From Bdellovibrionota bacterium (lineage in GTDB: Bacteria > Bdellovibrionota_C > UBA2361 > OMII01), in the NCBI GenBank assembly GCA_044351795.1, contig JBILFA010000004.1, positions 3 through 64,002 of the forward strand: 64,000 nucleotides of DNA. Reading direction: 5' to 3'. Both the position numbers and the translations under genes were made by a program. The notes beneath the pieces are model-generated. The model did no database searches, had not been told where the DNA came from, and saw only the letters and a program-made list of their open reading frames with translations. Below are positions 2,928-43,800 of this stretch, one piece after another (position 1 is the first letter of the stretch; every line of letters begins with the position of its first letter).

Positions 2928-3036
2928 CCGCTGGGGACTTTTCTCTCCATTGGCTTGGTCGACACTAGGACCTGAATGTTGATTAGTTCGGAAGCGCTGC
3001 GAAGTACTCTGTCTTAATGTATCAAAGGAACAGGTT

Positions 3037-4775: not shown

Positions 4776-4792
4776 CGCTAAGGACCTACACT

Positions 4793-5725: not shown

Positions 5726-5773
5726 GACAGATATAAGCGGCTCAGGAGAAGTTAAGTATTCAGGAGATAAGGT

Positions 5774-19661: not shown

Positions 19662-21678
19662 CGCCCTCGGCCATACGCTTCTCCCAAGGGTCCATCGCGG
19701 TTAGGGAAGGCAGCCTACCCTTCTCCTCCTTGAAGCGCTTTGCTCGCTTCGCGAGCTCACGAGCCTCCTCTATAGACATGCTGATTCGCTTTGCTGCAAT
19801 AACTTCGGCGACCATCCTAAGGCGCTCTTCACTCATGGACTTAGCGAGTATCGCGTATGCCTCACCAAACGGATTGACGCTATCAATAAGGTCGATATCA
19901 AGTTCTCTCACATGCAGAGCATATCGTCGAACACCATCGATGAGAGCCGTATTCCCGGTCTCGACTGAGCTCCCTTGATTCAAATCCGTCAGCGCCTTCT
20001 TGCCCTGCTGGACAAGATTTAGTGCAGCGACCGCGTGCTGGCGGATCGCTTCTTGATCCTCCTCTCCACATTCAGGGTATCGCTCCTTGATAATCTTACC
20101 CATTCTGACTTGTGTTAGCTCCTGCGGGACCACCTCACTGTCGAACAAGCCTCGCTCAATAGTCTGCTTGTCTTGGACAAATGCTGTAATCAATTCAGTC
20201 AGGTCTTCTCGACAGATCCGTTGGGCCTCCCTACTCTTCGGTGCCGCTAACCCCTTTATCTCAAGCTCAAGTTGACCGGTGTTTGGGTTCACACCGACAT
20301 TACACCTAGCTTGGTCGTACCCCCCGTCCCCGTAATCCATCCCAGGGGTCGGTCCGTTATTGGGATTCTTCGGGCGGAACTCGAACCTCGGAGCTAGAAC
20401 CTGCTCCATTAGAAGACTTGCGGCGATTGCCTTCAGAGTATCGTTCACCGCTTCATTGACCGCCGATTCGGCCGCGTCAGGCTCAGCAATTAGATTGGTG
20501 AATCGAGCTCTCGTCTTTCCAGGCGCATCTCGAGTGGCTCGTCCAATGATCTGGACTATTTCTGTGAGGCTCGCTCTGTATCCAATCGTCAGCGCATGCT
20601 CACACCAAATCCAATCAAAGCCCTCCTTAGCCATACCCAGGGCGATGATGATATCCACATGGTCTCGGTTGTTCTTTTGATTCGGATCTTTGAGAGAGGC
20701 GGAAACCCTATCGCGTTTAGCTTGTTCATCATCAACCAGATCCGCGATTCGAAGTACCTTTCCGCTCGCAACCTTGACGAGTTGAAATCCTGTCGTTGGG
20801 TCCGTTCCCTGCCACTGTCCTAGCTGTTCGAGAATGTGCTCGACTTCGCGGATCTTGTCCTTCGTGCTCTCTCGCGAGTTCACGTTGGGAATATGGACTA
20901 TAGTTTTCTCATCGTGGTCAAGAACCTTGAGAATCTCGTCCGTGTAGCTGCCAGCATAGAAGTAATATCCAATATCGAGCTGCTTTAAGTACTGATAGCC
21001 ATTAAGCTGCTCGTAGTAGGTGTAAGTGACCGTCTCAAACTTTGCCTCGTCTTCTGGGTGCAAGACCGCTTCGGCGTCACCACGGAAGTATGATCCCGTC
21101 ATAGCCACCAGGTGCGTTTTACCTCGAGCTATCAGCTGACGGACGTGATCCCCTAACCTGCTGTCAGGGTTTGCTGATACGTGATGGAACTCATCTACCG
21201 CTATAAGGCGATCGTCGAATACCTCGACACCGTATTTTTCAACCGCGAACCGGAAAGTTGCGTGCGTACAGACCAGCGCCTTATCTTCGGTCGCAAGAAA
21301 CGCCTTTAGACCATCCACTTTACCACCGTTGTCGCCACCCGGCGCATCGCATAAGTTCCACTTCGGTTCTACCTTCCAGTCAGCCCAAAATCCGTACTGG
21401 GTAAGCGGCTCGTCGTGAAAACTGGATCCTATGGATTTCTCGGGCACTACGATAATAGCCTGTTTGAGCCCTTGATTCTGGAGCTTATCGAGGGCGATAA
21501 ACATTAAGGCCCGACTTTTTCCTGACGCAGGTGGGGACTTTATCAAAAGGTACTGCTCGCCGCGTTTCTGATAAACGCGCTCTTGCATCGGCCGCATGCC
21601 GAGAGCGTTTGAGCGAGTGGAACTTCCGTCCTGAGCATAACTTACCGAAACTGACGGAACCGATATCCCGTTACTCAT
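19618..21678 (-). CDS. DEAD/DEAH-box (SF2) helicase
   Basis: Walker A SPPASGKSRAL, DEFHH box and motif VI QIIGRATRD. There is a C-terminal GRLPSL helicase-associated-like tail. The start overlaps the methyltransferase stop (ATGA). Confidence 0.85.
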   Translation of the reverse strand: MSNGISVPSVSVSYAQDGSSTRSNALGMRPMQERVYQKRGEQYLLIKSPPASGKSRALMFIALDKLQNQGLKQAIIVVPEKSIGSSFHDEPLTQYGFWADWKVEPKWNLCDAPGGDNGGKVDGLKAFLATEDKALVCTHATFRFAVEKYGVEVFDDRLIAVDEFHHVSANPDSRLGDHVRQLIARGKTHLVAMTGSYFRGDAEAVLHPEDEAKFETVTYTYYEQLNGYQYLKQLDIGYYFYAGSYTDEILKVLDHDEKTIVHIPNVNSRESTKDKIREVEHILEQLGQWQGTDPTTGFQLVKVASGKVLRIADLVDDEQAKRDRVSASLKDPNQKNNRDHVDIIIALGMAKEGFDWIWCEHALTIGYRASLTEIVQIIGRATRDAPGKTRARFTNLIAEPDAAESAVNEAVNDTLKAIAASLLMEQVLAPRFEFRPKNPNNGPTPGMDYGDGGYDQARCNVGVNPNTGQLELEIKGLAAPKSREAQRICREDLTELITAFVQDKQTIERGLFDSEVVPQELTQVRMGKIIKERYPECGEEDQEAIRQHAVAALNLVQQGKKALTDLNQGSSVETGNTALIDGVRRYALHVRELDIDLIDSVNPFGEAYAILAKSMSEERLRMVAEVIAAKRISMSIEEARELAKRAKRFKEEKGRLPSLTAMDPWEKRMAEGVAFLQKKVKESTNA

Positions 21679-28751: not shown

Positions 28752-29531
28752 CTATTTCAGCTGCCCTTTCCTCGGAATTAATGAGGCGGGTAAGGGCCCC
28801 ATGTCGAATCCAATGCCTCGGGAATGAAGGTATCTAAAGCCTTCCCGCTCGAAGTGCTGGCGAAGCTCTTTAAGAGACCACTCGTGGATATGTTCGCTAT
28901 GAACTTCCCTCGTTCGGCCCCACAGATGCCTTTCGATTTGAAACATCTGAGTCTGGTTGACTGTGGGGTAAGTCACCACCATTAATCCACCGGGCTTTAA
29001 CGCGTAAAAAAAATTTCGGATGACCGTTTGGGGATTTAAAACATGTTCCAGAGTCTCAACACTCACCACCTTATCAAATTGGCCTTCATGGACAGCGGCA
29101 GGGCGATCCTGAGCGCTTTCTGTGATCGACTCAAGATCGGATTCAATAAACTGAATTCCAGTGTGATTGTTAGCAGCGGCGGATTCGAAGGCTTTACTGG
29201 TGATGTCTATCGCTACCACCTGGGCCCCCATTTCGGCTACTTTCAAGGAAAGACGGCCATCTCCGCACGCAGCGTCCAAAATAACCTCCCCCGCTTTCGG
29301 GCACAGAAGCTTTAAAGCTGCTTTATGACGTGCCTCATGGTACGCGGCACTTACGTCAAAATTCCCAACGAGGTGAGACGGCTGATATCCTCCACCTTGA
29401 TACTTTTCCTGGTAATAAGCCCTAAGAGCCTCCGGAGAGCCAAAGGTTAGCTTTCCCTCACTCACTACAGATTCCGCGTCACGTTCAGGGCGAGTATTAC
29501 TCAGAGATGGTTCCACTTTTATAGCTCCCAA
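28752..29531 (-). CDS. Class I SAM-dependent methyltransferase
   Basis: Motif I VILDAACGDGRLSL, then DKVVSVETLEHV. It is divergent from the 29801-38001 operon. Confidence 0.75.
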   Translation of the reverse strand: MGAIKVEPSLSNTRPERDAESVVSEGKLTFGSPEALRAYYQEKYQGGGYQPSHLVGNFDVSAAYHEARHKAALKLLCPKAGEVILDAACGDGRLSLKVAEMGAQVVAIDITSKAFESAAANNHTGIQFIESDLESITESAQDRPAAVHEGQFDKVVSVETLEHVLNPQTVIRNFFYALKPGGLMVVTYPTVNQTQMFQIERHLWGRTREVHSEHIHEWSLKELRQHFEREGFRYLHSRGIGFDMGPLPASLIPRKGQLK

Positions 29532-29800
29532 GGAAGCAGACGCTTTAATTTAGCAGACCGCTATTTTAAACCCGCTCAGACTTATACCTGAGTTCTTGAG
29601 TTTGTATAGCGTTAATTGGCCGGGTGTGCTCGCCTCTCCGCGCTGCCTTCCTCACGTGGCAAACCTAGACGATCATGTACGTCGAACTTTACTTTCTATG
29701 AGACCTCATAGAACGATTTTAATTTACATTCAGGAGGATCTACGTTACGAGTGGGCCGCCTGACTTTCTCTATTCCTCTTAAGTACACGTGAGGGGGTTT

Positions 29801-30817
29801 ATGTTTTCATCTCAACACAGCTCGTCCTTTCCCTTTTTGCCGAGACAAAGGGAGTCTGGGGCCTCGGAAAGCACCCAGGGGCCGATGATTGCTCTCTCTG
29901 ATCGTTCACGGGATATTTTCTCTTCTATCCTTGCAGAAGTCGCGGGCGGTCCCTACTCTAACCAAGAGCTACCGCGTTACCTAACAGCTGCAACGAGACT
30001 TTGGGCGGAGAATCTTCCCGAGCTAGATAGAGCCCGTTCTCTATTGGTAGACCACGCCGTCCCTGCAGTTCTGTTAACGAACCTTCCCCAGGATGAGACG
30101 GTCCCACCGACCGGACCAGACGGCCGCATGATGAAGAAGACATCTGTTAGTGAAGCGGTGAGCGTCGCCTTGCTGCATCCCTTAGGGCGGCTGGCCACGC
30201 ATGCAGACAAACGAGACGGTGCTGTTGTTAGTGACCTGTATCCAAAAAAGTCTGATGCGGCAGCCCAGCTTGGCTCAAATTCAGTGTTTTTGGAGTGGCA
30301 TACAGACGAAGCTTTTCATGACGTCCCACCATCTTTTGTTTGCCTCTACGGTGTACGAGGAGAACCCTTAGCACAAACCCTTATCGCTGAGTTCAATTGC
30401 TCTGAGCTGCCACCGGAGATCGCGAGAGTCCTTTCCGAACCTCACTTCAGCATTCGATCGGACGGTTCCCATGCTGTGTTAGGGCAAAGAAAGAAAGCTG
30501 CTGTTCTTGACGGCGAAGGAGCCGATGCGCTGGTTAGATATGACCCGGTATTCACGGATTTCGACAACGCTGAGGCTGAGCTCGCCTTCGCTCAGTTTGA
30601 AGCATTTACGTTGAGAAAGTCGCTTAGCTTTACCATAGATACGGGGCAGGCACTTATCTTCAATAATAAAATCGGGATACATGCGAGAACAGAGTTTCCT
30701 CCCCGATTTGATGGCACTGATAGGTGGATCATCAAGTCGCAAGTAGTACCCGTAAGCACCCCCGAAGAGAAGTTTCACAATTCCAATCGATTTTGGCTAA
30801 ACCCAATTGGAGCTTGA
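29801..30817 (+). CDS. Fe(II)/2-oxoglutarate dioxygenase, clavaminate-synthase-like (VioC/AsnO/TauD superfamily)
   Basis: LEWHTDEAFHDVPPSFVCLYGVRGEPLAQT carries the HxD facial-triad start, followed by the FH..P....L.C.R....T pattern of CAS-like amino-acid hydroxylases. The distal IGIHARTEF follows. The start is ATG 29801 (the track GTG at 29789 is also possible). Confidence 0.7.
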   Translation: MFSSQHSSSFPFLPRQRESGASESTQGPMIALSDRSRDIFSSILAEVAGGPYSNQELPRYLTAATRLWAENLPELDRARSLLVDHAVPAVLLTNLPQDETVPPTGPDGRMMKKTSVSEAVSVALLHPLGRLATHADKRDGAVVSDLYPKKSDAAAQLGSNSVFLEWHTDEAFHDVPPSFVCLYGVRGEPLAQTLIAEFNCSELPPEIARVLSEPHFSIRSDGSHAVLGQRKKAAVLDGEGADALVRYDPVFTDFDNAEAELAFAQFEAFTLRKSLSFTIDTGQALIFNNKIGIHARTEFPPRFDGTDRWIIKSQVVPVSTPEEKFHNSNRFWLNPIGA

Positions 30818-30821
30818 GCTC

Positions 30822-31712
30822 ATGAACCAAGAAATACAAAAGCATACCGAACTCGGATTATCCGACCTACTAATAAAACCCTTCCTGTATGAATCTAGCG
30901 CTCAGTACAGCGTAGTCCTCCCCGAGTACCATTTCGCCGAAGGGACGGACATGGAGATGGCCGCGAGCAAGCTGAATAAGTTGGCGAGTCGACGAGAAAA
31001 GCCAGTCACGTTAGTGGACTGCGGGGCAGGCCCCGGTCGAGTGTGGGAATATCTAGGGGCGGATTTTGCCACAGTTGTCGCTGTCGAGCCGAGTCGAGGC
31101 ATGTGGAGAGCTGACCCGCCCTCTAACGTTAAATACGTGGAGTCAGGTGCTTTTGAATTTCTGAAAGCCAATCCAAGTACCGAAAGAATCGTTTCATTTC
31201 TTTGGTCAGTGAACTACCCACTACTGAGCTTTTTCGAGAAGTACGATCCAAAACAAGGAAAGGTCATTCAATTCGACGCACACAAGGGAGATGCTGATTG
31301 TAGAGCGGCAGTGCGCGAGGTGCTAGAGCGCAACTCTGGCTCCGACTATTTTATCATGGTGTTCGATGATGAGTCGCCCGAACAGCAATTTGTTACCTCT
31401 GTTTGGGAACGGGAAGCTCCATTTCCTTTCAATGACCGTTCCTATACTCGGCGACTCTTATTAGATGAAATGCAACGCTTCGCAGAGAAAAGTGGTGCCC
31501 TTTTCACGCAGGAGCATCACGCGGGTTTTGCGGACTATGGGCCCGGAGGTGTTGCCTTGAGTCGCATGCTCAATTTCCATCTGAGGGGACACTTCAACAA
31601 TGACCCAGAAGTTGTACAAGCCGCAGCGACTTTTCTTAGCTCCTACCGTGATGACAGCACTACTAAGGTGCCTGTGGGGATGCACATACTTCAGCTGCAG
31701 GCTGTTCCATGA
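30822..31712 (+). CDS. Class I SAM-dependent methyltransferase
   Basis: Motif I LVDCGAGPGRVWEYL. The ATG at 30822 lies 4 nt after the upstream stop. The track start at 30807 is a non-ATG codon inside the upstream gene. Confidence 0.65.
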   Translation: MNQEIQKHTELGLSDLLIKPFLYESSAQYSVVLPEYHFAEGTDMEMAASKLNKLASRREKPVTLVDCGAGPGRVWEYLGADFATVVAVEPSRGMWRADPPSNVKYVESGAFEFLKANPSTERIVSFLWSVNYPLLSFFEKYDPKQGKVIQFDAHKGDADCRAAVREVLERNSGSDYFIMVFDDESPEQQFVTSVWEREAPFPFNDRSYTRRLLLDEMQRFAEKSGALFTQEHHAGFADYGPGGVALSRMLNFHLRGHFNNDPEVVQAAATFLSSYRDDSTTKVPVGMHILQLQAVP

Positions 31713-32536
31713 GCACTCCTTGCGTTCTCATTACCGGGGCCTCGGGTACGTTCGGGCTAGCGCTTACAGATTTCTTTCTGAATACCGGTTGGTCTGTGAT
31801 TGCTGGGGTGCGTCGTGCTGCCGCGGAATCATATGTCAGAGAGCGCTTTGGAGCGGCGGTTTCGAACCAACGGCTCTCCATACTGTCCTTAAATGCGCTT
31901 GATTTATCACAGTGCCACGAAGTCCTGAAGGTGTATCTGCAATCGAATCCAGCCCCAAATGCGCTCATCAACAACGCTGCGACGGATTCATGGGAGGCAA
32001 TTGAGGACTTAACCCCGGAAGTTCTCATTGAAGTGCTACAGGTCAACTTGGTATTTCCCGCAATTCTAACGCGAGTTCTTATTAAACACTGGCGAGATGC
32101 CAAGCAGAGCGGCTCTATCCTTCACATTTCGTCTCTGCTTGCTAACTTTGGGGCTCTCGATAGCAGTGCCTATGCTGCTAGCAAGGGGGGTCTAGAGGCG
32201 TTCTCGAGAGCCGTTGCGGTTGAAGCAGGGCCTTATGGTATCCGCTCGAATGTTCTTCGTATTGCTGCGTGTCAACATGGTCTGACATCGCGTCACGAGC
32301 TACCGAGCCTAGATATTCGCTTCACAAGCGCTAACAACAACTCTACTAATATCGAGCTCATCCCCTTACAGCGACGAGGTGATATCGCCGACTTCTGTCG
32401 TGCTGCATCTTTTCTCGTTGGTCCAGAGGCGTCCTTTATTACAGGACAGGAGTTGACTGCTGATGGTGGACTCTCGGTTGTCTATCCTGGGTATTCTTCA
32501 CCGAGCTGCGGCCAGTTAGGAGCCGAAAATGTTTGA
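31709..32536 (+). CDS. Short-chain dehydrogenase/reductase (SDR)
   Basis: ITGASGTFG (TGxxxGxG), LINNAAT and YAASKGGLEAF (YxxxK). ATGA overlap with the upstream gene. Confidence 0.85.
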   Translation: MSTPCVLITGASGTFGLALTDFFLNTGWSVIAGVRRAAAESYVRERFGAAVSNQRLSILSLNALDLSQCHEVLKVYLQSNPAPNALINNAATDSWEAIEDLTPEVLIEVLQVNLVFPAILTRVLIKHWRDAKQSGSILHISSLLANFGALDSSAYAASKGGLEAFSRAVAVEAGPYGIRSNVLRIAACQHGLTSRHELPSLDIRFTSANNNSTNIELIPLQRRGDIADFCRAASFLVGPEASFITGQELTADGGLSVVYPGYSSPSCGQLGAENV

Positions 32537-33779
32537 ACGGGTTGTTAATCCATCTGCTTTTGCACTCCCCTCTGGGCTTGGTCAGCTCGAGAGGTCGACA
32601 GTGTCTATATCTGGAGATGACCATGAAGTAATGGCGGCATTTGCCCATCGGGCCGTAGTCGAAGGAGCGAACGTAGTACTTCTGCCAAGTTCGGGTGGAC
32701 AAGTTACGCTACCTTCTTTTAACGACAACATTATCGTCAACCTTCACTGCCCAAAAGATTCGCCTACCATTATTTCTACACAAAGCTCCGATGGGCGCCT
32801 GGGACCTCTTCATTCGGGAACCCTGACCTTGTACACTTCCGGAAGTACGGGGGAGCCAAGGCCTGTAACCTTGTCCCGACAGCAGCTGGATTTAACGGCG
32901 CGATGGTATCGTGACATATATGGTCTAACTCCCGACTCCGTCATAGTGAGTTCCCTTCCGCTTACTTACAACTTTTCCTTCATAGCAGGCGTATGGACTG
33001 CGCAGACTACTGGATGCGTTTATCAGCATGTGTCGCAAGAGCGCTTTGCCCTTGGCATCGAGGCAGCTCGATTGCATGCTGATAAGGTCATTGTGCTCGC
33101 GAATCCCGTGGTTATTGAGTCAATGATGAACGAGCACAGTCTCAGTGCTTTCAGTAATATCTTATTCGATACTGGCGGGGCTCCCTTGAGTACAACAGCA
33201 TTGCGCATGTTTAGGGATCGCATAGGAGATATTCGTGAAGGGTACGGGCTAACGGAAACCTGCTCGCTCACACACTTTGATACCGAGGGCACAGAGGACT
33301 CGTTAGGTACTGTAGGGCGGGCGCTGACCGGGGTAAATTTTGATATTCGTCACACACCTGCACGGCAGCCTGAGTTATGGATAGCATCACCTAATCTAGA
33401 ACAAGGGGGTTTTAGCGCGGATCGCTTAGTCGACGGGTATTACCGCACTGGCGATTTAGCACGCATAGATGCGGGCGGGCGCTTGCGACTTTTGGGCCGA
33501 TCTTCTGATCACTGTATTGGGGGGTATTATCCACGCGATACTCTCGACATTCTCGGCCCCCTCTTGGGTATGCGATGTGCATTGGTGCAACACGCTGGGC
33601 CGAATAGCGTGCTTATCAAGTTGAGACACATTGATGAGGAGCAACTGCCTGCACGTATGGCAGCGCTCGTATCCGAGACACACCAGATACCCTACAGTGG
33701 CGTTCGCGTGATGAGCCAGACCTCACCTCTTACCCACTCTCTTAAGTTAACTCGTGAGCTCGGGGGGCAGACCAACTGA
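32529..33779 (+). CDS. Adenylate-forming enzyme (AMP-dependent synthetase/ligase, short form)
   Basis: LYTSGSTGEPRPV, GYGLTET and YRTGDLA core motifs. At 416 aa it is shorter than typical acyl-CoA ligases. 8-nt overlap with the SDR gene. Confidence 0.75.
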   Translation: MFERVVNPSAFALPSGLGQLERSTVSISGDDHEVMAAFAHRAVVEGANVVLLPSSGGQVTLPSFNDNIIVNLHCPKDSPTIISTQSSDGRLGPLHSGTLTLYTSGSTGEPRPVTLSRQQLDLTARWYRDIYGLTPDSVIVSSLPLTYNFSFIAGVWTAQTTGCVYQHVSQERFALGIEAARLHADKVIVLANPVVIESMMNEHSLSAFSNILFDTGGAPLSTTALRMFRDRIGDIREGYGLTETCSLTHFDTEGTEDSLGTVGRALTGVNFDIRHTPARQPELWIASPNLEQGGFSADRLVDGYYRTGDLARIDAGGRLRLLGRSSDHCIGGYYPRDTLDILGPLLGMRCALVQHAGPNSVLIKLRHIDEEQLPARMAALVSETHQIPYSGVRVMSQTSPLTHSLKLTRELGGQTN

Positions 33780-35578
33780 TGTGTGGCCTTGTCGGAATAA
33801 TTCAACTTCGCGGTGAGATTACGTCCAATCAGGTGGACCAAGTACGCTGGGGTGTCGAGCGCCTAAAACACCGCGGCCCCGACGGTGCCCAGTACTGGGC
33901 TTCTGGGAACTTTTGTGTGGCGCACGCAAGGTTGTCAATATTCAACCATGAGTCCAGCGCTTCTCAGCCTTTTGTATCAGACCGAGCTGTCCTTGCGTGC
34001 AATGGCGAAATCTACAACTGTCGCGAACTCGCGGCTGAATTGGGTATAGACTACCACTCTCTCAGAAGCGACTGTGAAGTCGTGTTACGGGGATACGAAG
34101 TATGGGGCATATCTGTGGTGGCGCGTCTGAGGGGAGATTTCGCATTTGCCCTTTTTGATCGGATCTCTCACAAGGCTTACCTCGTTCGAGACCATATCGG
34201 GGTTAAGCAGCTAGTCTATACTCGTATCGGTGATGCCATAGCATTCGCTTCAGAAGCCAAAGCATTAGCAGGCCTCGGTGGTTTGGTGCTGGAGCCGTCT
34301 GTCGATAAGATTGCCGAAGACTGGGTGATGGGGTTTTGGGGCGATAAGGCGTCTACCTACTTCAAATCGGTAGACCACATCAAACAGGGGTGTTTTCTGG
34401 AGTGCTCAGTAGAGGGGCCCCCTAGGGAAGTCACTTATTGGTCTCCCCTGGACCTGCCGATCCGCTCGATGTCAAAAGATGTCTTTGTGAGTCAATTCGA
34501 TGACACGCTAAAGACAGCCACCGCAGTGCGGCTAATGGGTCAGGCTAAGATAGGTACCCTTCTTTCCGGCGGTGTAGATAGCAGTCTCACTACAGCAATG
34601 ACTGCCAAGGCACTACCGAGGGTGACCTCCTACACTACCACCTACTCTAAAAGTGCGACCAACGAAGATCTAGTTCACGCCGAATTAGTAGCCCAGAAGT
34701 ACCCAAATATTGAACACAGGAAGGTAGATAATGTCCCGGAAGACTTCTCATGGCAGAATCTCTCGACGACTTCCTATCACATGGAGGAAGTCGTATGGGA
34801 TAGGGTGTACTGGGCAATCCTCAACAACTATCGCGCTGCTTCTTCAGATGGGCATCGGGTTATCCTGAGTGGACAGGGTTCTGACGAGCTTTGGCTCGGT
34901 TACTTTTTCACGTTCCCTCACTACAGAGTGTGCGGTTCACAGTGGCAGAAGGATTATCTTATTAACGATTTTTCTCAGGATTCTTTAAGATTCATGGACG
35001 CGCTAGACCCGGCTTTCCTGAATAGCGAACGAGCCAAGGAAATAGTCGCGTCCAATATCGAGCGGAACTTGCTCCCTTATGGGGATCGGGACAAATTAAA
35101 TGGAATCGCTCACTGGGCATTTCGGACGCATCTTCAGAGTAATTTGATGCAAGAGGACCGGCTTTCTATGGCCAGTTCAGTTGAATGCAGAGTACCTCAT
35201 GTCGATATCGAGGTAGTAAAGCTCGCTTATGCTACTCCCAGCTATTTAAAGCTTTTAGATGGGCGCGAAAAGTATCCTGTTCGACAGGTAGCTGCGCGAT
35301 GGCTTCCGATTCAGGTCGCTAACCGCAGCAAGTTCGCCTTCCCTGAGAGTCCGGATTCATATAACAGTGAGATTCATGCAAGACTTCGGGATGGTACTAT
35401 CCCGTCGCTAAACGAGCCAATTCTAGGAGCGATATTCAAGGAAGAGGTTCTAAAGCTTGCGCGCACCAATCCTGCTTCACTTGCCCCTCAGCTTCTATGG
35501 CGCATCGTAGCCATAGCAAACTTCAGCGCTATTTTTACTTCGTCCTTGAAGACGCTCACTGTGCATGATACTCGGTAG
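33779..35578 (+). CDS. Asparagine synthetase B-type glutamine amidotransferase
   Basis: N-terminal MCGLVGI (Ntn Cys2 nucleophile present) and the PP-loop LLSGGVDSS. The start overlaps the upstream stop (TGATG). Confidence 0.85.
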   Translation: MCGLVGIIQLRGEITSNQVDQVRWGVERLKHRGPDGAQYWASGNFCVAHARLSIFNHESSASQPFVSDRAVLACNGEIYNCRELAAELGIDYHSLRSDCEVVLRGYEVWGISVVARLRGDFAFALFDRISHKAYLVRDHIGVKQLVYTRIGDAIAFASEAKALAGLGGLVLEPSVDKIAEDWVMGFWGDKASTYFKSVDHIKQGCFLECSVEGPPREVTYWSPLDLPIRSMSKDVFVSQFDDTLKTATAVRLMGQAKIGTLLSGGVDSSLTTAMTAKALPRVTSYTTTYSKSATNEDLVHAELVAQKYPNIEHRKVDNVPEDFSWQNLSTTSYHMEEVVWDRVYWAILNNYRAASSDGHRVILSGQGSDELWLGYFFTFPHYRVCGSQWQKDYLINDFSQDSLRFMDALDPAFLNSERAKEIVASNIERNLLPYGDRDKLNGIAHWAFRTHLQSNLMQEDRLSMASSVECRVPHVDIEVVKLAYATPSYLKLLDGREKYPVRQVAARWLPIQVANRSKFAFPESPDSYNSEIHARLRDGTIPSLNEPILGAIFKEEVLKLARTNPASLAPQLLWRIVAIANFSAIFTSSLKTLTVHDTR

Positions 35579-35581
35579 CCC

Positions 35582-36103
35582 ATGAGACGTTATTGTATTT
35601 TTCTTATCGCCGAATCGCCTGCCCTTGCGCTGATAGAGGATATCAGAATACTGCTCGATCCATTGAGCGGTGTTGTTCCTGCTCACCTTACGGTGGTGTT
35701 TCCTTTTTCTACAGAGATGTCTCCTAAGGTTATTATCGACCATGTGGCTGATCGCGCTGCTCACTTCTCTCCCATCGAGACGACCTTGGTAGGTTGTCAC
35801 CTTCAAAACGATGGATACATTCACATTTCAGTCCTGGATCAGCAGAAGCAACTATCCGCGCTACATGCGCAGCTGTATTCGGGTAGCCTCGAGTCGTTCT
35901 TGGATCCGAATTTTCCATTCCTGCCTCACATAACTATTGGGCGCTACACGGCTACGTCTCAAGACGGCGCAGAAAAACAGATACAGAGACTTTCCTTCCC
36001 AATTTGTTTGCGTTTAAGCAGGTTAGTCTTAGAGGAGATCCTTGAGGACGATAAATCGAGCCCTCTGCTGGAAGTGACGTTAGGAGGTAAGGTATCAACA
36101 TGA
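35582..36103 (+). CDS. 2H phosphoesterase (LigT / 2'-5' RNA ligase-like)
   Basis: Two H-x-T/S motifs at the expected spacing, AHLTVVFPF and LPHITIGR. 173 aa. Confidence 0.7.
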   Translation: MRRYCIFLIAESPALALIEDIRILLDPLSGVVPAHLTVVFPFSTEMSPKVIIDHVADRAAHFSPIETTLVGCHLQNDGYIHISVLDQQKQLSALHAQLYSGSLESFLDPNFPFLPHITIGRYTATSQDGAEKQIQRLSFPICLRLSRLVLEEILEDDKSSPLLEVTLGGKVST

Positions 36104-38001
36104 ATGTATCTATAAACTCATCAAATAACTCAAGCCCTCAGCCATCGGCAGAGAGTATCTCGGAAAAGATAGGCGGGGTGATCTCGACTTTTCAGGAGTT
36201 TGCCACTCTAGCCACTCATCTTAGGCTGGATAGGGAGAGCCGTGGTTACATTGCCCGATTGTCGTATCCCCTTTTGCGTGCCATCGCGACTCTAGAGTGT
36301 GCGGCGGCGGAGGTTACAAAGGCACCGCTATCTCCCGCTCGCCTCGGTGACGTGCCAGAGGGCGTCGTTGGAGATTTATCGGTTTCTTTCCCCCACTTGA
36401 TGAAGGAGGACCGCCGCCGATTTCCAGAGCTAGCCAGTGAGATCGCTGCGGTTGCAGTTCAGCAACGAGAGATAGGATTTTTAGAGGTGTATAATACCGG
36501 TCCTTATCTGAATGCCGTGCTCGATCGTCGAACCTTCATTCCTGCGGTGTTGTCTCAAGTGGCCGAGCTCGGAGCGCTTTATGGGCAGACCGATACACAT
36601 AGAGGAGAGGCTGCCTACATCGATTTTTCAAGTCCGAACATCGGAAAGAGCCTTCACGTTGGGCATGCAGGATCTACGATTGTTGGCCATGTACTTTCAA
36701 ATATCTTTGATGCGGCTGGCTACTCGGTGCTGCGGGTTAACTATATTGGAGATTGGGGGGTCGCTGCAGCCAAGCTCCTTCAAGGTGTTCGAACACAGGG
36801 AGACCCGCCAAGAAGTCTATCCCCTGAAGAAGCGCTAGACAGATACTCAACTATCTATTCCACCACTTCTCAGCGCTATAAGGAAGAGGAGGCTCTTCAA
36901 CAGAGCGTGAATCATGTATTGTTGCAATTACAATCCAGAGACAGTCAGACGCTTGATCTTTTGGACTCCATACGCCGCCGCTCCGTCGACGGTTTGAACG
37001 AAATTTATGCCAAGCTCGGTGTATACTTTCATGCCTATGTGGGAGAGAGCTTCTACGAGGAATCTCTTGCAGATACTATAAGCGAATGCCTCGCTCGTGG
37101 AATCGCTCAACAAGAGGCGACTGCGTGTCCTGTAGTCGTTGATTTGTGCGATAAAAGGCTGCCATCTTTTGTTCTCGCTAGGGAGGATGGCACCTCGACA
37201 TACTTGGCACGAGATGTTGCATCCTTGAGGGTACGAAAAGAATTAACCGCTGCTGATATCTCCCTATATGTTGTGGGAAGTGAGCAGAGGCTTCATCTGG
37301 CGCAGGTCATTGAAACGGCTACACGGATGGGATACATCGCGCCTGGAGAGGCACACCATGTAGTGATTGGCTTACTCACGAAGTACGGAGAAAAAGTATC
37401 GTCACGGGATGGCTCGTCTCTTGCTCTTGAAGGTTTTCTCGCATTTCTTGAGAAGGAAGCGGCAACTGTAATAGCAAGCCGACAGCCAGACATGGCAATT
37501 GAGGAGCAACGACGCTTGGCGAGCCAACTAGCGAGGGGCGCTCTATTCTTCACTTTCTCTCAGCGAAATCCCGACAAAGGATTTGAGTTTGATGTCCAGA
37601 AGATATTCGCGCTAGATGGGCGAAGCGCGTTATACCTTCAGTATGCGGCCACTCGAGCGGATAGCCTTCTGACGAAAGCAGGTACAGCCAATAAAGAAAT
37701 TTCAGCTCTCAACTGGGAGGAAGTTTGTCGTCTCATGCCTAAGGCTGCTGAGGAATTGGTGTTTGAAATATCACGACTACCGATAGCAATCGAAAATGCT
37801 CTTCAGCTTCGCTCTCCCCATCCGCTCGCAGATAGTGGTTTTCGCCTTGCCCAACGCTTCAACCGATTCTTCAATGAGGTGCAGGTTAAGGGCGCTGAGG
37901 GAGATGTTGGGCAGTTTTACCGGCATCTGGTTAAAGCATTCCGGCAGACACTAGGAAATATACTGACCATGATTAACATAGAAGTCCCTGAGCGGATTTA
38001 G
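36100..38001 (+). CDS. argS: Arginine--tRNA ligase paralog (class I aaRS, full length)
   Basis: SSPNIGKSLHVGHAGSTIVGHVLSNIFDAAGYSVLRVNYIGDWG carries the HIGH region and the ArgRS-specific GDWG. It also has KYGEKVSSRDG (degenerate KMSK), a DALR-type anticodon-binding end YLQYAATRADSLL, and an N-terminal additional domain (GPYLNAVLD). ATGA overlap with the 2H gene. Confidence 0.8.
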   Translation: MNVSINSSNNSSPQPSAESISEKIGGVISTFQEFATLATHLRLDRESRGYIARLSYPLLRAIATLECAAAEVTKAPLSPARLGDVPEGVVGDLSVSFPHLMKEDRRRFPELASEIAAVAVQQREIGFLEVYNTGPYLNAVLDRRTFIPAVLSQVAELGALYGQTDTHRGEAAYIDFSSPNIGKSLHVGHAGSTIVGHVLSNIFDAAGYSVLRVNYIGDWGVAAAKLLQGVRTQGDPPRSLSPEEALDRYSTIYSTTSQRYKEEEALQQSVNHVLLQLQSRDSQTLDLLDSIRRRSVDGLNEIYAKLGVYFHAYVGESFYEESLADTISECLARGIAQQEATACPVVVDLCDKRLPSFVLAREDGTSTYLARDVASLRVRKELTAADISLYVVGSEQRLHLAQVIETATRMGYIAPGEAHHVVIGLLTKYGEKVSSRDGSSLALEGFLAFLEKEAATVIASRQPDMAIEEQRRLASQLARGALFFTFSQRNPDKGFEFDVQKIFALDGRSALYLQYAATRADSLLTKAGTANKEISALNWEEVCRLMPKAAEELVFEISRLPIAIENALQLRSPHPLADSGFRLAQRFNRFFNEVQVKGAEGDVGQFYRHLVKAFRQTLGNILTMINIEVPERI

Positions 38002-38577: not shown

Positions 38578-40080
38578 TCATGATTTCGCCTCAAAGTGAT
38601 CAATCAACATCCTGCGCTGGATAGTAGCAAACAGGACCCCTCCCCTCTCCTTCTTCTCGAGGTAAAAGCGCTGGTTAAACGACAGCGCATTATCAAAGGC
38701 CTCCCTCTCAAAGCTCACTTTCTCTTCCTCACTGAGAGCAGCCCAAAATGTATCGAACTCCTGCTCTAGTTCAGACGGCTTCTCAGGAGCCTTAGCTTCA
38801 GGCTGAACTGCTGGCTCCTGCTTGCGCGTAGGCTTTACAGCGAGTCCAGCTGAGACAACGCGAAGTTCAGACTTAGCCTCCTCTTTGCTCTTTAGAAAGC
38901 CGCTCGGTGGCGAGTAATCATCCTGGATAGCAGTCACAAGAAACCCTGCGGGGTTGCTCGAGCAGCGCTTATCCCCTCGCTGCATCATCCAATCGAAGAT
39001 AGCTATCTTGCTAGCGATGCGATTTGCCTCATAGCTCCTCACAAGCTTTGACGCTTTCGCTGGAGAGACCCCCCTGGCCTTTAGCTGCTCAAAGGCCGCG
39101 TCCTGCTCTGTAGACAACAGGAGCTTCGCTTCAGAGGCTCCCCTATCGAAAACCACTTTCCAGTTACCCTTGGTGACCTTTATGAAGCGCTCTTCCTTTG
39201 GAAGCGGCTTAATAAAGCCCATCCCTTCAAGCTCTAAGAGAGGCTTAGAGAACAAGCGCTTTACTTCAGCCACAGGCGTCGTGCGCGATATGCCGACGTG
39301 CTCATAGGCGAAGCGCAACAGGTCATACTCAAGGCGTGCCCTGCGATAGAAGTGCTTGTCGAGGAATCGGTACATACGCTTTGAGATAGCGCTCTTTAGT
39401 TGCTTGTAGATGTCTAAGTCGATCTCTTTAAGGTTACCGGCCTTAAAGCTTCTAAAGACGATATCGTTCCACACGAAGTGAGAGCGGCCAGCGTTTTCGT
39501 CTCCTGGGTTAAGGCTCTTTTTGTTCGCGCGGCGCTCCTTGTCGTACACCGTCACTGAGTCCAGTAAGTGAAAGCTCTCGTTGACCCAGCACTGCTCTTC
39601 CTTGGACCACCACGCCTTGTCGTAAAAGAGCGTAATGCTCACCCAGCGCTTGAGGGACTCATCGATGCGCCTGTAGCTCTTCGCTGAGTCGTTCCACCCC
39701 AAAAGCTTAATGAGCTCGTACGAAGAGAAGTACACGGTGCGACTTGCAAAGCGCTGCTTGTCGGTAAGCTGGATGAGCCCAAGGATAACCTCCTCGTCTA
39801 AGGCGGTAGGAAGCCCATACATGTCAGAGGCAGCGATGGTTAACTTGCGAGTGATGTGCTGGCCAATGCTCTGGTCGAAGATGGTGTCGTGAAACTCTAG
39901 CTTCTTCTGCCCATCGGGAACTCGGTCAGCAAGGCTCGCAAGAGGAAACTCCGCAAAGTTCAGTTCGTCCTTGAAGCGCTCAGCATGGTTCGACGGTGAG
40001 AACTCGTCACTGCCCTCGGGTAGAGAGGACACGATCTCAAAGAGAGGCTCGGTCTGTTTTGCATGGTTTGAGTTGGTCAT
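38578..40080 (-). CDS. Plasmid replication initiator (replication initiator protein A / RPA-like)
   Basis: ELNFAEFPLASLADR...YGLPTALDEEVILGLIQLT resembles the RPA N-terminal domain. The gene sits directly downstream of an iteron array. Confidence 0.7.
   Translation of the reverse strand: MTNSNHAKQTEPLFEIVSSLPEGSDEFSPSNHAERFKDELNFAEFPLASLADRVPDGQKKLEFHDTIFDQSIGQHITRKLTIAASDMYGLPTALDEEVILGLIQLTDKQRFASRTVYFSSYELIKLLGWNDSAKSYRRIDESLKRWVSITLFYDKAWWSKEEQCWVNESFHLLDSVTVYDKERRANKKSLNPGDENAGRSHFVWNDIVFRSFKAGNLKEIDLDIYKQLKSAISKRMYRFLDKHFYRRARLEYDLLRFAYEHVGISRTTPVAEVKRLFSKPLLELEGMGFIKPLPKEERFIKVTKGNWKVVFDRGASEAKLLLSTEQDAAFEQLKARGVSPAKASKLVRSYEANRIASKIAIFDWMMQRGDKRCSSNPAGFLVTAIQDDYSPPSGFLKSKEEAKSELRVVSAGLAVKPTRKQEPAVQPEAKAPEKPSELEQEFDTFWAALSEEEKVSFEREAFDNALSFNQRFYLEKKERGGVLFATIQRRMLIDHFEAKS
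38582..38673. repeat. Direct repeat DR-a: the resident rep 3' end (candidate attB-derived core)
   Basis: Counterpart of 27240-27329 and 1146-1179. Confidence 0.7.
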
Positions 40081-40226: not shown

Positions 40227-40630
40227 TGTGGGCCAAAAGACGGTAGTTCTCGTTAATTCGATGGGTAGAGGCACGGTACCCCTGTGGGTCAAGGCACGGT
40301 AGCAACATGGGTCAAAGCACGGTAAAAATGTGGGTGGAAGTACGGTATGTGAGTTCAGAAGGTATGAACTTCTTAACTTCTGAAGTGATGAACCTCTGAA
40401 ATTCCTCATTACCGACCCAGTGAGAGGAGAAAACATGGGTGAAAGCACGGTAGAAACGTGGGTCAAAGCACGGTAGGTGCTCACCAAAACGTGGGCCAAG
40501 GGTCGGGGTGGAAGGGTAACCGTAGAGGAGTGCAGGGGGTTGCGTAAGTGCTCTAAATGCCTAGGTAAATAGGTGATTCGTGCCGGGAGAAAGGCACTCC
40601 ATGTAGCGCTTTTGTGGTTCAAAGCACGGT
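40227..40630. repeat. oriV-like iteron array
   Basis: At least 9 copies of a roughly 19-bp unit (approx. aTGGGTCAAAGCACGGTAg). TGGGT cores lie at 40229, 40262, 40285, 40308, 40331 (four phased at 23 bp), 40436, 40459, 40492 and 40615. The array lies directly upstream of rep. Confidence 0.85.
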
Positions 40631-40978
40631 AAATAGAGCTGAGAAGGCCTCTTTCGCCAAGGCCTCCGAACATGCGTGGCAGCACTGCATATATAGAGGA
40701 GTAAGGGGGTCTGTTACCCCGACACAAATCTCCTACCCGCTCCTGGCTGAAGCGGTATGTGGCTTCCCTCTGGCTCTGGAACACCACTGGTTACTCCTTC
40801 TCGTTTCCTCATCCACCCGCACTGAGTCGGATAGTCTTGGGGCACAAAACATCCGGTGCCACTCACATTCATACATTTCTCTAAACACAGAAGCTTCAAG
40901 TGCTCCTCTGCGTTCACCGCGCTCGATGAGACGTGAGGCCTCCCCTACTCTGCTTCTCGCTTCACTACTGCTTTACCC

Positions 40979-41728
40979 CTAGGTTCTGCGCTTCACCTTT
41001 GCCTTCGTAAGAGCGTAAAGCTCCTCTTCCGTGCGCGGTGCCTCAGTGTCTAAGGGTAAAAGCTCTTCGAGAAAAATCTTGATAGCGACGCGTGTAAGCG
41101 TATTGGCGGTAATACGCTCTGTGGGGTCGTTCTTTCTGCGCTGAAGATTAGCAGCGAGTTGGCTCATATGGTCGCGCATCTCTGGACTCATAATCGTGGT
41201 GACACGTTCCGTGTACATGTCACTCTTAGGAGCGCTGTGAGATGTGGGTGGCTTCTCCTGCGCCTCTGATGGCCGAGCAGTACGAGGCTCAGGAGTAATC
41301 CGTTGCTTAGCGATGGGTGACGGGGTGACTGGGCGAGATACGGGCTGTGGAGTGACAGCACTAGCCTGAGGCGCTCGGGGAGCAAGGTTGACCTCGGGTG
41401 CCTTGACCGGCGCTACAGTAGGAGCCGGTTGCTGCGGTGGTGTGACGACAGGCTGCGGCGCCGCTTGCGTGACTGGTGCAGCGGTAGCGATCGGCGTCTT
41501 TAGCTCTATCACCGTTTCTTGCTTCGGTGTTGGTAATGGAGGAGCTGCGATTGCCGCAGGTGTCACTGGTGCCGGCTGCGGCAGGTGCGCAGCCGGAGCT
41601 GTTTTGGCAAAGCTTGTCCCAAATGGACTGTCTCTCCGAGCGGTTCCCGCTCCCGTTAATCCACCAAAGCCGCCAAGAGATGACAGACCAGCCTTGAGCT
41701 CTTCTTCAGTAACGGTTGGTTTAGCCAT
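40979..41728 (-). CDS. Putative centromere-binding protein: long Pro/Ala-rich region plus a C-terminal RHH-like fold (ParG/omega-like role)
   Basis: It is immediately downstream of parA with an 8-nt overlap. The C-terminal ERVTTIMSPEMRDHMSQLAANLQ...ITANTLTRVAIKIFLEE fits beta-alpha-alpha. The middle roughly 130 aa are PAxV-rich low complexity. Confidence 0.5.
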   Translation of the reverse strand: MAKPTVTEEELKAGLSSLGGFGGLTGAGTARRDSPFGTSFAKTAPAAHLPQPAPVTPAAIAAPPLPTPKQETVIELKTPIATAAPVTQAAPQPVVTPPQQPAPTVAPVKAPEVNLAPRAPQASAVTPQPVSRPVTPSPIAKQRITPEPRTARPSEAQEKPPTSHSAPKSDMYTERVTTIMSPEMRDHMSQLAANLQRRKNDPTERITANTLTRVAIKIFLEELLPLDTEAPRTEEELYALTKAKVKRRT

Positions 41729-42569
41729 TTACTGCTACCTCCTCCTGTGTGGCCATCACAGCTTGAGTGGCGGGAGTGCTAGCGGACATACCCAAGCGCT
41801 CAAGGAACTCTCGTGCTAACTGAGAGTAGTCTTCAGTGCCCCTACCCTTTGGTGAGTCTTCGTAATCAAAGATCGTCTTTCGCAAGCTCGGTGCTGCTTT
41901 GGCCTTCGTGTTCACACGCACCTTGGTCTTAAAGAGCATGTTGCCGAGCTCCTTCTGAAGGGTCGACTCAACCGTACGGCAGATCTTCTCTGATTGAGAG
42001 TACATCGTGAGTACGACACCAAGTGGCTTTAGTAGAGGTGCTATCTTCTCCATGCGACCGATTGAGTTGCCAAGGAGCGTGAGCCCCACCATGGGAAGAT
42101 ACTCAGCGCTACAAGGGACGAGAAAATAGTCGCTTGCTACAAGTGAGTTCATCACGACTAAAGAGATCGACGGTGGATTATCAAGGAAGACGATGTCGTA
42201 TCCTTGAATCTCAGGGGTTCGCTCGATACATCCCTTGAGGATCGCTTCTCGCCCTACTGCGCTTACGAGGCTTATGTCCGCGCCGGCGAAATCCTCAGAG
42301 CACGGAATGATATCGAGATTCATCGTTGTTGTGGGAGTGATGAGATGTCCAAGAGTGGTCTCATCCATCAGGGCATCAAAGAGTGTCGCTACCCCGTCCA
42401 CGAGCGGCACAGGTCCAATGAGGCTGTGAGTCAGATTCTGCTGAGCATCAAGATCAATCACAAGTATGCGCTTCCCCACTCGCGCAAGCGCTGCAGCCAG
42501 GTTCACTGTGGTCGTTGTCTTAAGACAGCCGCCTTTGTGATTTACGACGCTAATAATAAGTGGGCTCAT
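41721..42569 (-). CDS. parA: ParA-family partition ATPase
   Basis: Deviant Walker A VVNHKGGCLKTTT, plus ILVIDLDAQ and VFLDNPPS. Confidence 0.9.
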   Translation of the reverse strand: MSPLIISVVNHKGGCLKTTTTVNLAAALARVGKRILVIDLDAQQNLTHSLIGPVPLVDGVATLFDALMDETTLGHLITPTTTMNLDIIPCSEDFAGADISLVSAVGREAILKGCIERTPEIQGYDIVFLDNPPSISLVVMNSLVASDYFLVPCSAEYLPMVGLTLLGNSIGRMEKIAPLLKPLGVVLTMYSQSEKICRTVESTLQKELGNMLFKTKVRVNTKAKAAPSLRKTIFDYEDSPKGRGTEDYSQLAREFLERLGMSASTPATQAVMATQEEVAVNG

Positions 42570-42814: not shown

Positions 42815-42978
42815 AGTTGGTACCTAGCACTGACAATTTACTCGCGCAACGCATAAAACAGCAGCGAGTTGCACAGTATGGCCTCGGGCAGACCAGAGTT
42901 CATGTGTTCTGAATAGTGAAGACCTCGTTTTATCGCAAGAGGAAAAATCAACTCGTCCCCCAGTTTCGACTGAGAGAT

Positions 42979-43662
42979 CTCTGAAGTTCTGAAGGTATGA
43001 AGTTCCGAAGGTGTGAAGGGCTGAACATCGGAAGTTCATGCCGTCATAGTTCGTAGGCCGGCTTGAGGCGCTATTGGCGAAAGTTCTGAATATGCGAACT
43101 TCTGAAGGTATGAACTTCAGAAGTTTAGAACTTGAGGATTGTAGAAACGCTCTCGCGAGAACAGGCTGAGATTTCGGGCTTCTGAAGGTATGAAGTTCTG
43201 AATGTCTGAAGTTCATATCTTTGGTGCCTTTGATAGTTAACGAAAGATCGTTGCTCAAAGGTGTGAACTTATGAACATGCGAAGTTCTGAACTTCATATG
43301 TTCTGAACTGCCGACCTTTGGCGGCTTGTTTGTCAGTGGAGAGTGAAGTTCAGAATGTCTGAAGATATGAAGTTCATAAGTTTGGAACTTCATATCTTTG
43401 GACCATGGTTGAAGGGCGGAACTCGTGGCTACCAAAGTTCTGAATATATGAACATCTGAAGTTATGAACTTCGGAACTTCTGAACTCTGCGGGCGTGGGC
43501 CTGTTGTCTCAGGGCGCGGGTGAAGCTCTGAACTTCTGAACTTCATATGTTCGGAACTTCCTAAGTTCATAGCTTTGTCGGCCTGCTGCTCATTTCCAAG
43601 GACATCCCTTGAGGGGATACCTGCGGTAAAGTCTGAAGTTATGAAGTTCAGACCTTCTGATG
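42979..43662. repeat. Eight clusters of 8-bp-phased GAA(G/C)TTC repeats (candidate centromere / operator array)
   Basis: Clusters start near 42979, 43078, 43176, 43259, 43341, 43433, 43519 and 43629. An example is ctgaagtt|ctgaaggt|atgaagtt|ccgaaggt|gtgaaggg|ctgaacat|cggaagtt. Units occur in both orientations. One further cluster lies in the origin at 40353-40405. Confidence 0.75.
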
Positions 43663-43800
43663 TTTGGCTATATGTCTTTGGTATCACAACTTTTACCGTC
43701 TCGAATTCCACTTACCGTCAGCTTTGGCGAACTGTCCCTTAGCCCCGATCCGCGTAGCAGGCTCGAGCACTTTACCTTTGTCGCAAACAGGGTAGGGGGC

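Follow-up and report, generated by a model that had tools for sequence, protein, structure and literature searches.

The 64,000-nucleotide stretch of DNA analysed here (the window) derives from a Bdellovibrionota bacterium and belongs to a plasmid. Its segment 35582-38001 holds two plus-strand open reading frames (ORFs), 35582-36103 (173 aa), encoding a 2H phosphoesterase, and 36100-38001 (633 aa), encoding an arginyl-tRNA synthetase (ArgRS), which are the final two genes of a seven-gene operon read from one strand (29789-38001). The ArgRS is intact, and its gene is repeatedly linked, here and at other loci, to the cassette of five enzyme genes that precedes the pair (29789-35578) and to further operons for arginine analogues. 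The reading that we favour, and consider somewhat probable, is that the organism produces an ArgRS inhibitor or an antimetabolite derived from arginine and is itself protected by an analogue-insensitive ArgRS, because the linkage of ArgRS to the cassette and to arginine-altering operons recurs and involves two ArgRS lineages. A self-resistance copy was one of three possibilities raised in the preliminary description of this DNA, and among them the comparative evidence speaks most for this one, the linkage being kept in three arrangements. What that description overlooked is the upstream five-gene cassette, which, judging from homologous loci, is the conserved partner of the ArgRS.

Linkage of ArgRS to the cassette

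In five metagenome samples (loci L009-L012 and L015), the same five genes were found in the same order, with 47-56% identity to those of the window, and an ArgRS gene lies directly 5' of them in divergent orientation. In contrast to the similarity of the cassettes, the ArgRS of L009 is only 24% identical to that of the window; it keeps HVGHMR and the Pfam N-terminal domain, most resembles E. coli ArgRS (4OBY) and, in a neighbour-joining tree, falls in a different clade from the window ArgRS, which belongs to the G-clade described below. Given such similar cassettes but such distant synthetases, the ArgRS must have been recruited or replaced independently, and this one cassette has acquired ArgRS genes of unrelated lineages on at least two occasions. 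A module boundary can be seen in L010, where direct repeats of about 330 nt (793-1122 and 10527-10874, 89-96% identical) bracket exactly the ArgRS and the five genes. These repeats are parts of a duplicated 174-aa ORF, and a Peptidase_S66 gene (MccF/LdcA family) lies just beyond one of them. A third arrangement is seen in L140, where an AsnB-like gene faces away from a dioxygenase gene that is followed by the ArgRS gene P0128. An ArgRS gene beside a biosynthetic operon, with the link kept across homologous clusters in three arrangements and with two ArgRS lineages, is the pattern that a cluster-embedded aminoacyl-tRNA synthetase (aaRS) for self-resistance would be expected to show.

The window operon itself is also present on a 55-kb JGI contig and on one Logan contig. 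A scan of JGI metagenomes added one more locus, of the L009 type, and GTDB representative genomes contained neither the plasmid nor further copies of the cassette. For the ANL ligase of the cassette, viral contigs yielded no match, and for AsnB only generic ones, while plasmid searches returned only distant AsnB and ArgRS matches and no match at the DNA level. A distant variant (L013 and L014) combines a methyltransferase, a 602-aa protein without assignment, a protein resembling short-chain dehydrogenases/reductases (SDRs) and an ANL ligase.

Within the operon, the ATG of the ArgRS gene (36100) overlaps the TGA of the 2H gene (36101-36103) in the sequence ...ATCAACATGAATG..., so that the overlap of start and stop reported earlier is indeed present as ATGA at 36100-36103. 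An AGGAGG Shine-Dalgarno sequence stands about 10 nt 5' of the ArgRS start codon, and a 3-nt gap separates the AsnB stop from the ATG of the 2H gene. In GC and GC3 content, the 2H and ArgRS genes are similar to the other operon genes and slightly unlike the plasmid backbone. Scans for promoters and terminators gave match counts at or below shuffled expectation, no tRNA gene or Rfam element (e.g. a T-box) was found in the window, and the operon contains neither a carrier protein nor a condensation domain.

The ArgRS and its clade

The window ArgRS passes the equivalog model TIGR00456 (argS; 322.9 bits, cut-off 261.65) and contains the Pfam domains tRNA-synt_1d (PF00750, 190.7 bits) and DALR_1 (67.6 bits). 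The HVGH (186-189) and GDWG (217-220) motifs, the DALR domain and the KMSK-like loop noted in the preliminary description were all found; the loop reads VSSR (433-436) and is aligned with MSTR of yeast ArgRS. The arginine-binding residues of the yeast enzyme (1BS2/1F7U), which we take to be E148, N153, Y347, D351 and Q375, have D175, N180, Y368, D372 and Q396 as their counterparts, and most homologues (99 of 119) likewise have D in the first position of this set. Of the 82 columns with at least 85% conservation among these homologues, 61 are retained.

Pfam did not detect the N-terminal Arg_tRNA_synt_N domain, so that the additional N-terminal domain (Add1) claimed earlier finds no support from that side; it does from the AlphaFold model of the ArgRS (pLDDT 87, pTM 0.89). 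Because this model superposes on whole ArgRS structures (for 6AO8, a TM-score of 0.88 on the target over 584 columns), Add1 appears to be present though divergent, and its GPxxN motif is conserved. Judging from residues and model together, the ArgRS looks competent in catalysis and tRNA binding. The earlier expectation that it binds tRNA-Arg and arginine is thus supported as a predicted competence, with the arginine-binding residues and the DALR domain both kept.

Disabling substitutions in the arginine-binding residues had been named as an observation that would speak against a working paralog; when looked for, they were not seen, and one striking deviation elsewhere, not mentioned in that description, deserved attention. 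Gly191 replaces the Arg of HxGHxR, two residues after the HIGH motif, which is R in 110 of the 119 homologues. Gly191 was considered as an inactivating lesion and rejected, since the whole clade has it, including members in conserved, housekeeping-like positions; being common to these, it is not expected to be disabling, and it is probably a lineage trait of ordinary enzymes.

A phylogeny, as proposed in the preliminary description, and a comparison of active-site residues with those of the 119 homologues place the window ArgRS, its arginine-binding residues kept, in a clade (HxGHxG or G-clade) with the signature SPNxGKSLHVGHxG, in which all 11 members have G at the Arg position. Relatives were collected by an exhaustive HMMER search of 1.84 billion representatives, where clade members show 32-38% identity to the window ArgRS and score 318-418 bits, against at most 250 bits for ordinary ArgRS. 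Except for a fragment of the same protein, nothing in that set is more than 38% identical to the window ArgRS. Only four of 185,579 GTDB species representatives contain the clade, namely two unclassified metagenome-assembled genomes and two labelled Bdellovibrionales. The window ArgRS is the outlier of the clade: of the positions invariant in the other eight members it keeps 82%, whereas each of the others keeps 91-97%, and its changes include the GDWGTPVG segment. In all other members GDWG(T/L)P replaces GDWGTQFG, and in the window the segment is GDWGVA.

The settings of several clade members are listed in Table 1. In L141, the MrsA is a 2-ketoarginine C-methyltransferase (E 2.9e-109 to 8R4Z) and the enzyme overlapping the ArgRS start a beta-methylarginine aminotransferase (TIGR04544, 310 bits); the operons of L141 and L021 look like a cluster for a 3-methylarginine-derived product, perhaps of D-configuration, with its own ArgRS. 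With the mrsABC pathway for 3-methylarginine in Pseudomonas syringae, the window shares enzymes that would modify arginine at C3, and sister ArgRS of the G-clade are translationally coupled to MrsA and the beta-methylarginine aminotransferase; unlike that pathway, the window cassette is based on a hydroxylase and has neither MrsA nor MrsB. To our knowledge, the mrs cluster of P. syringae relies on an exporter and has no ArgRS. Its product, 3-methylarginine, is a secreted toxic arginine analogue made by MrsA (PMC3662646; PMC10502145). Taken together, these contexts show the lineage of the window ArgRS in repeated association with arginine-altering enzymes, above all those acting at C3.

Further genes lie around these loci. 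In L141 (operon region L141:7789-15249), the part 3' of the ArgRS gene encodes a 761-aa threonine-synthase-like pyridoxal phosphate (PLP) enzyme and an enolase of the o-succinylbenzoate synthase (OSBS)/N-succinylamino-acid-racemase type, and on the 5' side there are a GNAT protein, a TauE exporter and an M20 peptidase; the L021 counterpart is L021:18-3638. In L017, the PhyH gene is followed by genes for a signal-peptidase-like protein, a lasso-type PqqD chaperone, a 35-aa ORF, an HprK-related kinase, an NTP_transf_5 protein, a glycosyltransferase and an ABC exporter. L019 may represent another unassigned pathway ending in an ArgRS gene.

Cassette chemistry and the role of the ArgRS

The dioxygenase that opens the cassette shows HxD...H and RxDGTDRW motifs in alignment, and its NCBIfam matches, all sub-threshold, are GntD (115.7 bits), VioC (100.3 bits) and CS1 (77.9 bits); in the PDB it matches AsnO, OrfP, CmnC, KDO1 and VioC. 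With its homologues in L009 and L140 it shares 51% and 38% identity, respectively, and it probably hydroxylates C3 of an arginine-type substrate. The family-less protein encoded next has a motif I reading DCGAGPGR, and its AlphaFold model (pLDDT 82) resembles histamine N-methyltransferase, trans-aconitate methyltransferase, HvrF and BioC (TM-scores 0.5-0.64), from which a small-molecule methyltransferase fold is predicted; a set of 5.8 billion proteins holds just two clusters of homologues, and the homologue in L009-L012 and L015 is 51% identical. The SDR is 49% identical to its L009 homologue. For the ANL ligase (47% identical to L009, 37% to L013), the closest solved relatives are malonyl-CoA synthetase and MenE, and it could act as a coenzyme A (CoA) ligase or as an amide-bond synthetase. 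The AsnB-type protein (56% identical to L009, 42% to the L140 fragment) scores 327.4 bits against TIGR01536 (cut-off 267.1) and begins with MCGLVG. Because the N-terminal glutaminase Cys2 is retained, it should not be a beta-lactam synthetase but an amidotransferase that turns a carboxylate into a carboxamide.

From these assignments, the genes 29789-35578 would form a biosynthetic cassette independent of nonribosomal peptide synthetases, with a chemistry that at class level would comprise C3 hydroxylation, methylation, redox steps, ANL-type acyl activation or amide formation, and carboxylate amidation. Its product would be a small molecule derived from arginine that acts as an antimetabolite or inhibits ArgRS. 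The ArgRS would then be a working enzyme from an analogue-insensitive lineage, co-transcribed with the cassette so that the producer could still charge tRNA-Arg correctly in the presence of the compound, which would make it a case of target-copy self-resistance like MupM, AgnB2 and the ArgRS of the tiarin clusters.

In the preliminary description, any of the functions proposed was said to be new for ArgRS. As to self-resistance, this is now outdated: trifolitoxin inhibits ArgRS, the cluster-encoded ArgRS of Legionella birminghamensis confers trifolitoxin resistance, and tiarin clusters recruit ArgRS from naturally resistant lineages (Travin et al., 2025, bioRxiv 10.64898/2025.12.02.691738). 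The window has in common with the tiarin clusters an extra ArgRS beside a biosynthetic operon, cluster copies that come from non-host lineages, and the expected role of an insensitive target. It differs in that its chemistry is that of an enzyme-only small-molecule pathway and not of a peptide that is made by the ribosome and modified after translation (RiPP), and in that its ArgRS belongs to another clade (HxGHxG). The operon proteins and those further window ORFs that were scanned include no flavin mononucleotide (FMN)-dehydrogenase pair TfxB/TfxC, no YcaO and no precursor peptide, and identity as a tiarin cluster was rejected for want of the TfxB/C genes. While aaRS immunity in gene clusters is known, for ArgRS since 2025, no earlier description appears to exist of the cassette, of the ArgRS clade or of the clade's link to operons for arginine analogues.

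A second likeness is with agrocin 84 (pAgK84), which also has a transferable plasmid on which an aaRS gene comes last in an operon with an asparagine-synthetase-type enzyme and a methyltransferase, and SDRs and a dioxygenase in the wider locus. In that system, however, AgnA is of AsnA type and the dioxygenase of PhyH type (AsnB and TauD in the window), the target is LeuRS (with AgnB2 for immunity), and pAgK84 has NUDIX, nucleotidyltransferase and ABC exporter genes that are missing in the window operon. An agrocin-84-like nucleotide antibiotic was rejected, the enzyme classes being only analogous and the nucleotide-handling genes absent, and agrocin 84 is kept as an analogy. The early clavulanate pathway likewise uses an AsnB-family enzyme, a clavaminate-synthase-like oxygenase and an SDR on an arginine-derived acid, but the window AsnB keeps Cys2, and there is no CEAS, PAH or ATP-grasp enzyme in the window. 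In dapdiamide biosynthesis, DdaH is an AsnB-type amidotransferase that caps a distal carboxylate. Its partner DdaG is an ANL amide-bond synthetase (PMC12568646). The DdaG/DdaH/DdaC logic, an ANL ligase paired with an AsnB-type amidotransferase and an Fe/2-oxoglutarate oxygenase, is shared with the window; for the named enzymes of both the clavulanate and the dapdiamide pathways, the likeness is at family level, below equivalog cut-offs.

It should be noted that several points weigh against self-protection as the function of the window ArgRS. The best solved match of the dioxygenase is the asparagine hydroxylase AsnO, so that an arginine substrate is not established, and alignment with AsnO, OrfP and CmnC does not settle it. 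The operon contains neither an exporter nor a regulator. The distant cassette variants show no ArgRS within their short contigs (L013 and L014), and the sample of loci is small and consists mostly of metagenomic fragments. The substrate, the product and its action on ArgRS as a target, the insensitivity of the window copy and the presence of a second argS in the host are all things that we infer. In addition, the clade members P0001 and P0134 (both beside amtB) and P0130 are plain stand-alone chromosomal genes in partly conserved settings, and plasmid location alone proves nothing, as the plasmid search found argS on megaplasmids in Halobacterium, where sole argS genes on plasmids exist.

The last of these points, together with the inferred status of a second host argS, would also fit an ArgRS that has no functional link with the operon, being either the only housekeeping copy of the host or a hitch-hiker beside a metabolic operon. 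Such an absence of any link is quite unlikely in our view, as the cassette-ArgRS linkage occurs in three arrangements with two ArgRS lineages, the repeat-bracketed module includes the ArgRS, and the ArgRS gene has its start/stop overlap and a strong ribosome-binding site inside the operon. A housekeeping gene is, moreover, expected to have close orthologues in its lineage, and none exists anywhere. A housekeeping role of the window ArgRS is unlikely, judging from sequence comparison, because it has no close relative and because the replicon is planctomycete-like while the planctomycete ArgRS is of the canonical type.

A different role was suggested by the idea of a dedicated supplier of Arg-tRNA: the ArgRS could be biosynthetic, so that a tRNA-dependent step of the pathway would draw on the Arg-tRNA that it supplies or on tRNA-Arg that it charges with the modified arginine. 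The SerRS VlmL of valanimycin biosynthesis is a precedent for a biosynthetic aaRS. The window enzyme is full-length and keeps its tRNA-binding parts (the Add1 G134...N138 motif and DALR), coupling to amino-acid-tailoring enzymes within operons is tight in several loci, and the changes of the clade (R191G, QF to PV) could reshape the pocket for a C3-substituted arginine. Against this, neither the window operon nor the L009 cassette contains a known aminoacyl-tRNA-using transferase (Fem/GNAT-type, cyclodipeptide synthase, LanB/PEARL or L/F-transferase), none of these, nor an R-transferase, was seen in any version of the cassette, and all five cassette proteins have other assigned folds. The two unrelated ArgRS lineages that serve one cassette are easily explained by resistance but hardly by the need for a special pocket; the L009 ArgRS gene is divergently transcribed, as is often the case for immunity genes, and where clade members stand in housekeeping-like contexts, ordinary charging with arginine is implied. 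With no known transferase family of this kind present, the supply of Arg-tRNA is weaker than self-protection as an explanation, and we regard it as improbable, if less so than the lack of any link.

If self-protection is the function of the ArgRS, the window would represent a second, chemically unrelated type of cluster with its own ArgRS, and could lead to a new scaffold against an essential and little-exploited drug target, for which trifolitoxin, reported in 2025, is the sole natural inhibitor described. The signature SPNxGKSLHVGHxG would serve as a sequence tag for mining arginine-analogue pathways, and the link of the clade with MrsA/MrsB operons suggests a mode of action of 3-methylarginine and a means of producer protection. 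A functional ArgRS without the near-invariant Arg after HIGH would, in addition, be a natural experiment in the discrimination between arginine and its analogues. A bolder proposal, which we consider doubtful as a whole, is that the HxGHxG clade is a dedicated immunity determinant, traded horizontally, against a hidden family of antimetabolites (arginines hydroxylated or methylated at C3, carbamoylated arginines, and the amides of these), that the window cassette makes the first non-ribosomal small-molecule natural product against ArgRS, that ArgRS is the target of 3-methylarginine, and that the 2H phosphoesterase is a second immunity or tailoring factor working with the ArgRS.

The 2H phosphoesterase and the plasmid

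The 2H protein, described earlier as carrying two HxT/S motifs, does have both (Table 1), and matches PF13563 (78.9 bits, cut-off 27) and PF02834 (30.5 bits, cut-off 23.3). The earlier designation as LigT-type did not hold: the protein scores 22.9 bits against the LigT equivalog TIGR02258, below the cut-off of 65.7, and among solved structures B. subtilis YjcG (2D4G) is the nearest. For these two reasons LigT-type seems too specific, and the protein is best described, from its sequence matches, as a generic YjcG-like member. It shares with the YjcG/LigT phosphoesterases the two HxT motifs, PF13563 and a size of about 170 aa; unlike LigT, it falls under the equivalog cut-off, has no RNA-repair partners nearby and is encoded within a small-molecule operon.

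The coupling of 2H and ArgRS, which headed the preliminary description, is not conserved. Only two homologue clusters of the 2H protein (P0122 and P0123) exist in 5.8 billion proteins, neither of which adjoins an ArgRS, and the ten other loci with a linked ArgRS all lack a 2H gene. A conserved partnership with ArgRS was rejected on these grounds, and the 2H gene appears to be an accessory specific to this version of the plasmid or operon; its enzyme could act on a phosphoester intermediate by tailoring or detoxification, or the gene could have been caught as a passenger between those for AsnB and ArgRS. The closest homologue (64% identity; L007:943-2137) lies 10 nt 3' of a Peptidase_S51 gene (dipeptidase E/cyanophycinase family) and is flanked by a transposase fragment.

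These findings also bear on the suggestion of a tRNA-Arg repair or counter-defence module, in which the 2H enzyme would open the 2',3'-cyclic phosphates that an anticodon nuclease leaves at the cut ends and the ArgRS would recharge the tRNA. Colicin D, for example, cleaves tRNA-Arg, the ATGA overlap points to co-translation of the two proteins, and the plasmid has several defence islands (MmeI-type restriction-modification, AbiE). However, the neighbours typical of bacterial RNA repair (Pnkp/Hen1, RtcAB) were not found: there is no RNA ligase (RtcB), no kinase and no nuclease at the locus, the 2H gene is missing from the other ArgRS-linked loci while its homologues are not beside ArgRS, and the pair is joined to a five-enzyme small-molecule operon by the 3-nt gap. 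PADLOC gave no match for the 2H protein or the ArgRS, and either of them as a component of a defence system was rejected on this basis. Lacking a ligase, kinase or nuclease partner, the repair module finds no support and is extremely improbable.

Table 1. Features of the window and settings of clade ArgRS genes at other loci
Locus	Feature	Position	Strand	Evidence or setting
Window	Class I S-adenosylmethionine (SAM) methyltransferase	28752..29531	-	Pfam Methyltransf_23/31/11/25; divergent from operon
Window	Fe(II)/2-oxoglutarate dioxygenase, clavaminate-synthase-like	29789..30817	+	Pfam TauD; cassette gene 1
Window	SAM methyltransferase-fold protein (predicted), family-less	30807..31712	+	Weak Methyltransf_23; cassette signature gene
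Window	SDR	31709..32536	+	Pfam adh_short, adh_short_C2
Window	ANL adenylate-forming ligase, compact, 416 aa	32529..33779	+	Pfam AMP-binding, 79.6 bits
Window	AsnB-type glutamine-dependent amidotransferase	33779..35578	+	TIGR01536; Pfam GATase_7, Asn_synthase
Window	2H phosphoesterase, YjcG-like	35582..36103	+	PF13563, PF02834; H35-L-T37, H116-I-T118
Window	Full-length ArgRS, SPNxGKSLHVGHxG clade	36100..38001	+	TIGR00456; last operon gene, translationally coupled to 2H
Window	RepA replication initiator	38578..40080	-	PF10134, Rep3_N
Window	Eight iteron-like 16-nt copies of GGGTCAAAGCACGGTA, upstream of repA	40230..40631	+	8 matches vs 0.32 expected by chance
Window	ParA partition ATPase	41721..42569	-	CbiA/AAA_31/MipZ
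L140	P0128, closest relative of window ArgRS			Downstream of dioxygenase 38% identical to that of the window; AsnB-like gene (42%) facing away
L141	P0136			ArgRS start overlaps end of upstream aminotransferase gene; MrsA further 5'
L021	Member 49% identical to P0136			MrsA-like gene and aminotransferase, as in L141
L143	P0133	L143:372-4041 (region)		Start overlapped 17 nt by NodU/CmcH-type carbamoyltransferase gene
L017	P0129	L017:10001-19243 (region)		Followed by PhyH dioxygenase and RiPP-like genes
L019	P0132	L019:660-7656 (region)		Ends operon of MFS transporter and four tightly packed ORFs without family match

The plasmid nature of the replicon, as proposed earlier, is borne out by RepA, iterons, ParA, a relaxase, a type IV coupling protein and ArdC. 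The closest matches of RepA, at 40-48% identity, are the RepA proteins of planctomycete plasmids (Isosphaeraceae, Gemmataceae), which would make a planctomycete the probable host. A nominal 295-aa ORF (42824-43711, minus strand) consists of 16-nt and 24-nt DNA repeats (42980-43486) 5' of an HTH-parA operon, and is probably a centromere-like parS array and not a gene.

The methyltransferase gene divergent from the operon (28752-29531) is also found on the same plasmid in L001 and is plasmid-specific; in the L009-type cassette, the ArgRS gene occupies this place. Its product matches PADLOC mad2 (78.8 bits) and gives a Hen1 score of 29.8 bits against a cut-off of 340, signals that are probably due to the generic methyltransferase domain.

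Elsewhere on the plasmid, a defence island (18444-24497, minus strand) encodes an MmeI-type restriction-modification enzyme (940 aa), a DEAD/ResIII helicase (686 aa) and a T5orf172/MUG113 protein (405 aa). Further defence or toxin-antitoxin modules are possible at 11123-12705 (minus strand), where an AbiEii toxin and its DUF6088 partner are encoded, and at 13952-15335 (minus strand), where a DprA/SLOG protein adjoins a weak phosphoribosyltransferase (PRTase)-like protein. A second small-molecule locus may be present at 1512-6574 (plus strand), where a beta-eliminating-lyase-type PLP enzyme, a 410-aa protein without assignment and two SAM methyltransferases are encoded on one strand. Finally, the N-terminal part of a 626-aa protein of L141 shows 27-40% identity to the window ORFs 363-695, 3669-4016, 6870-7286 and 8737-9222, which suggests a repeated domain family.

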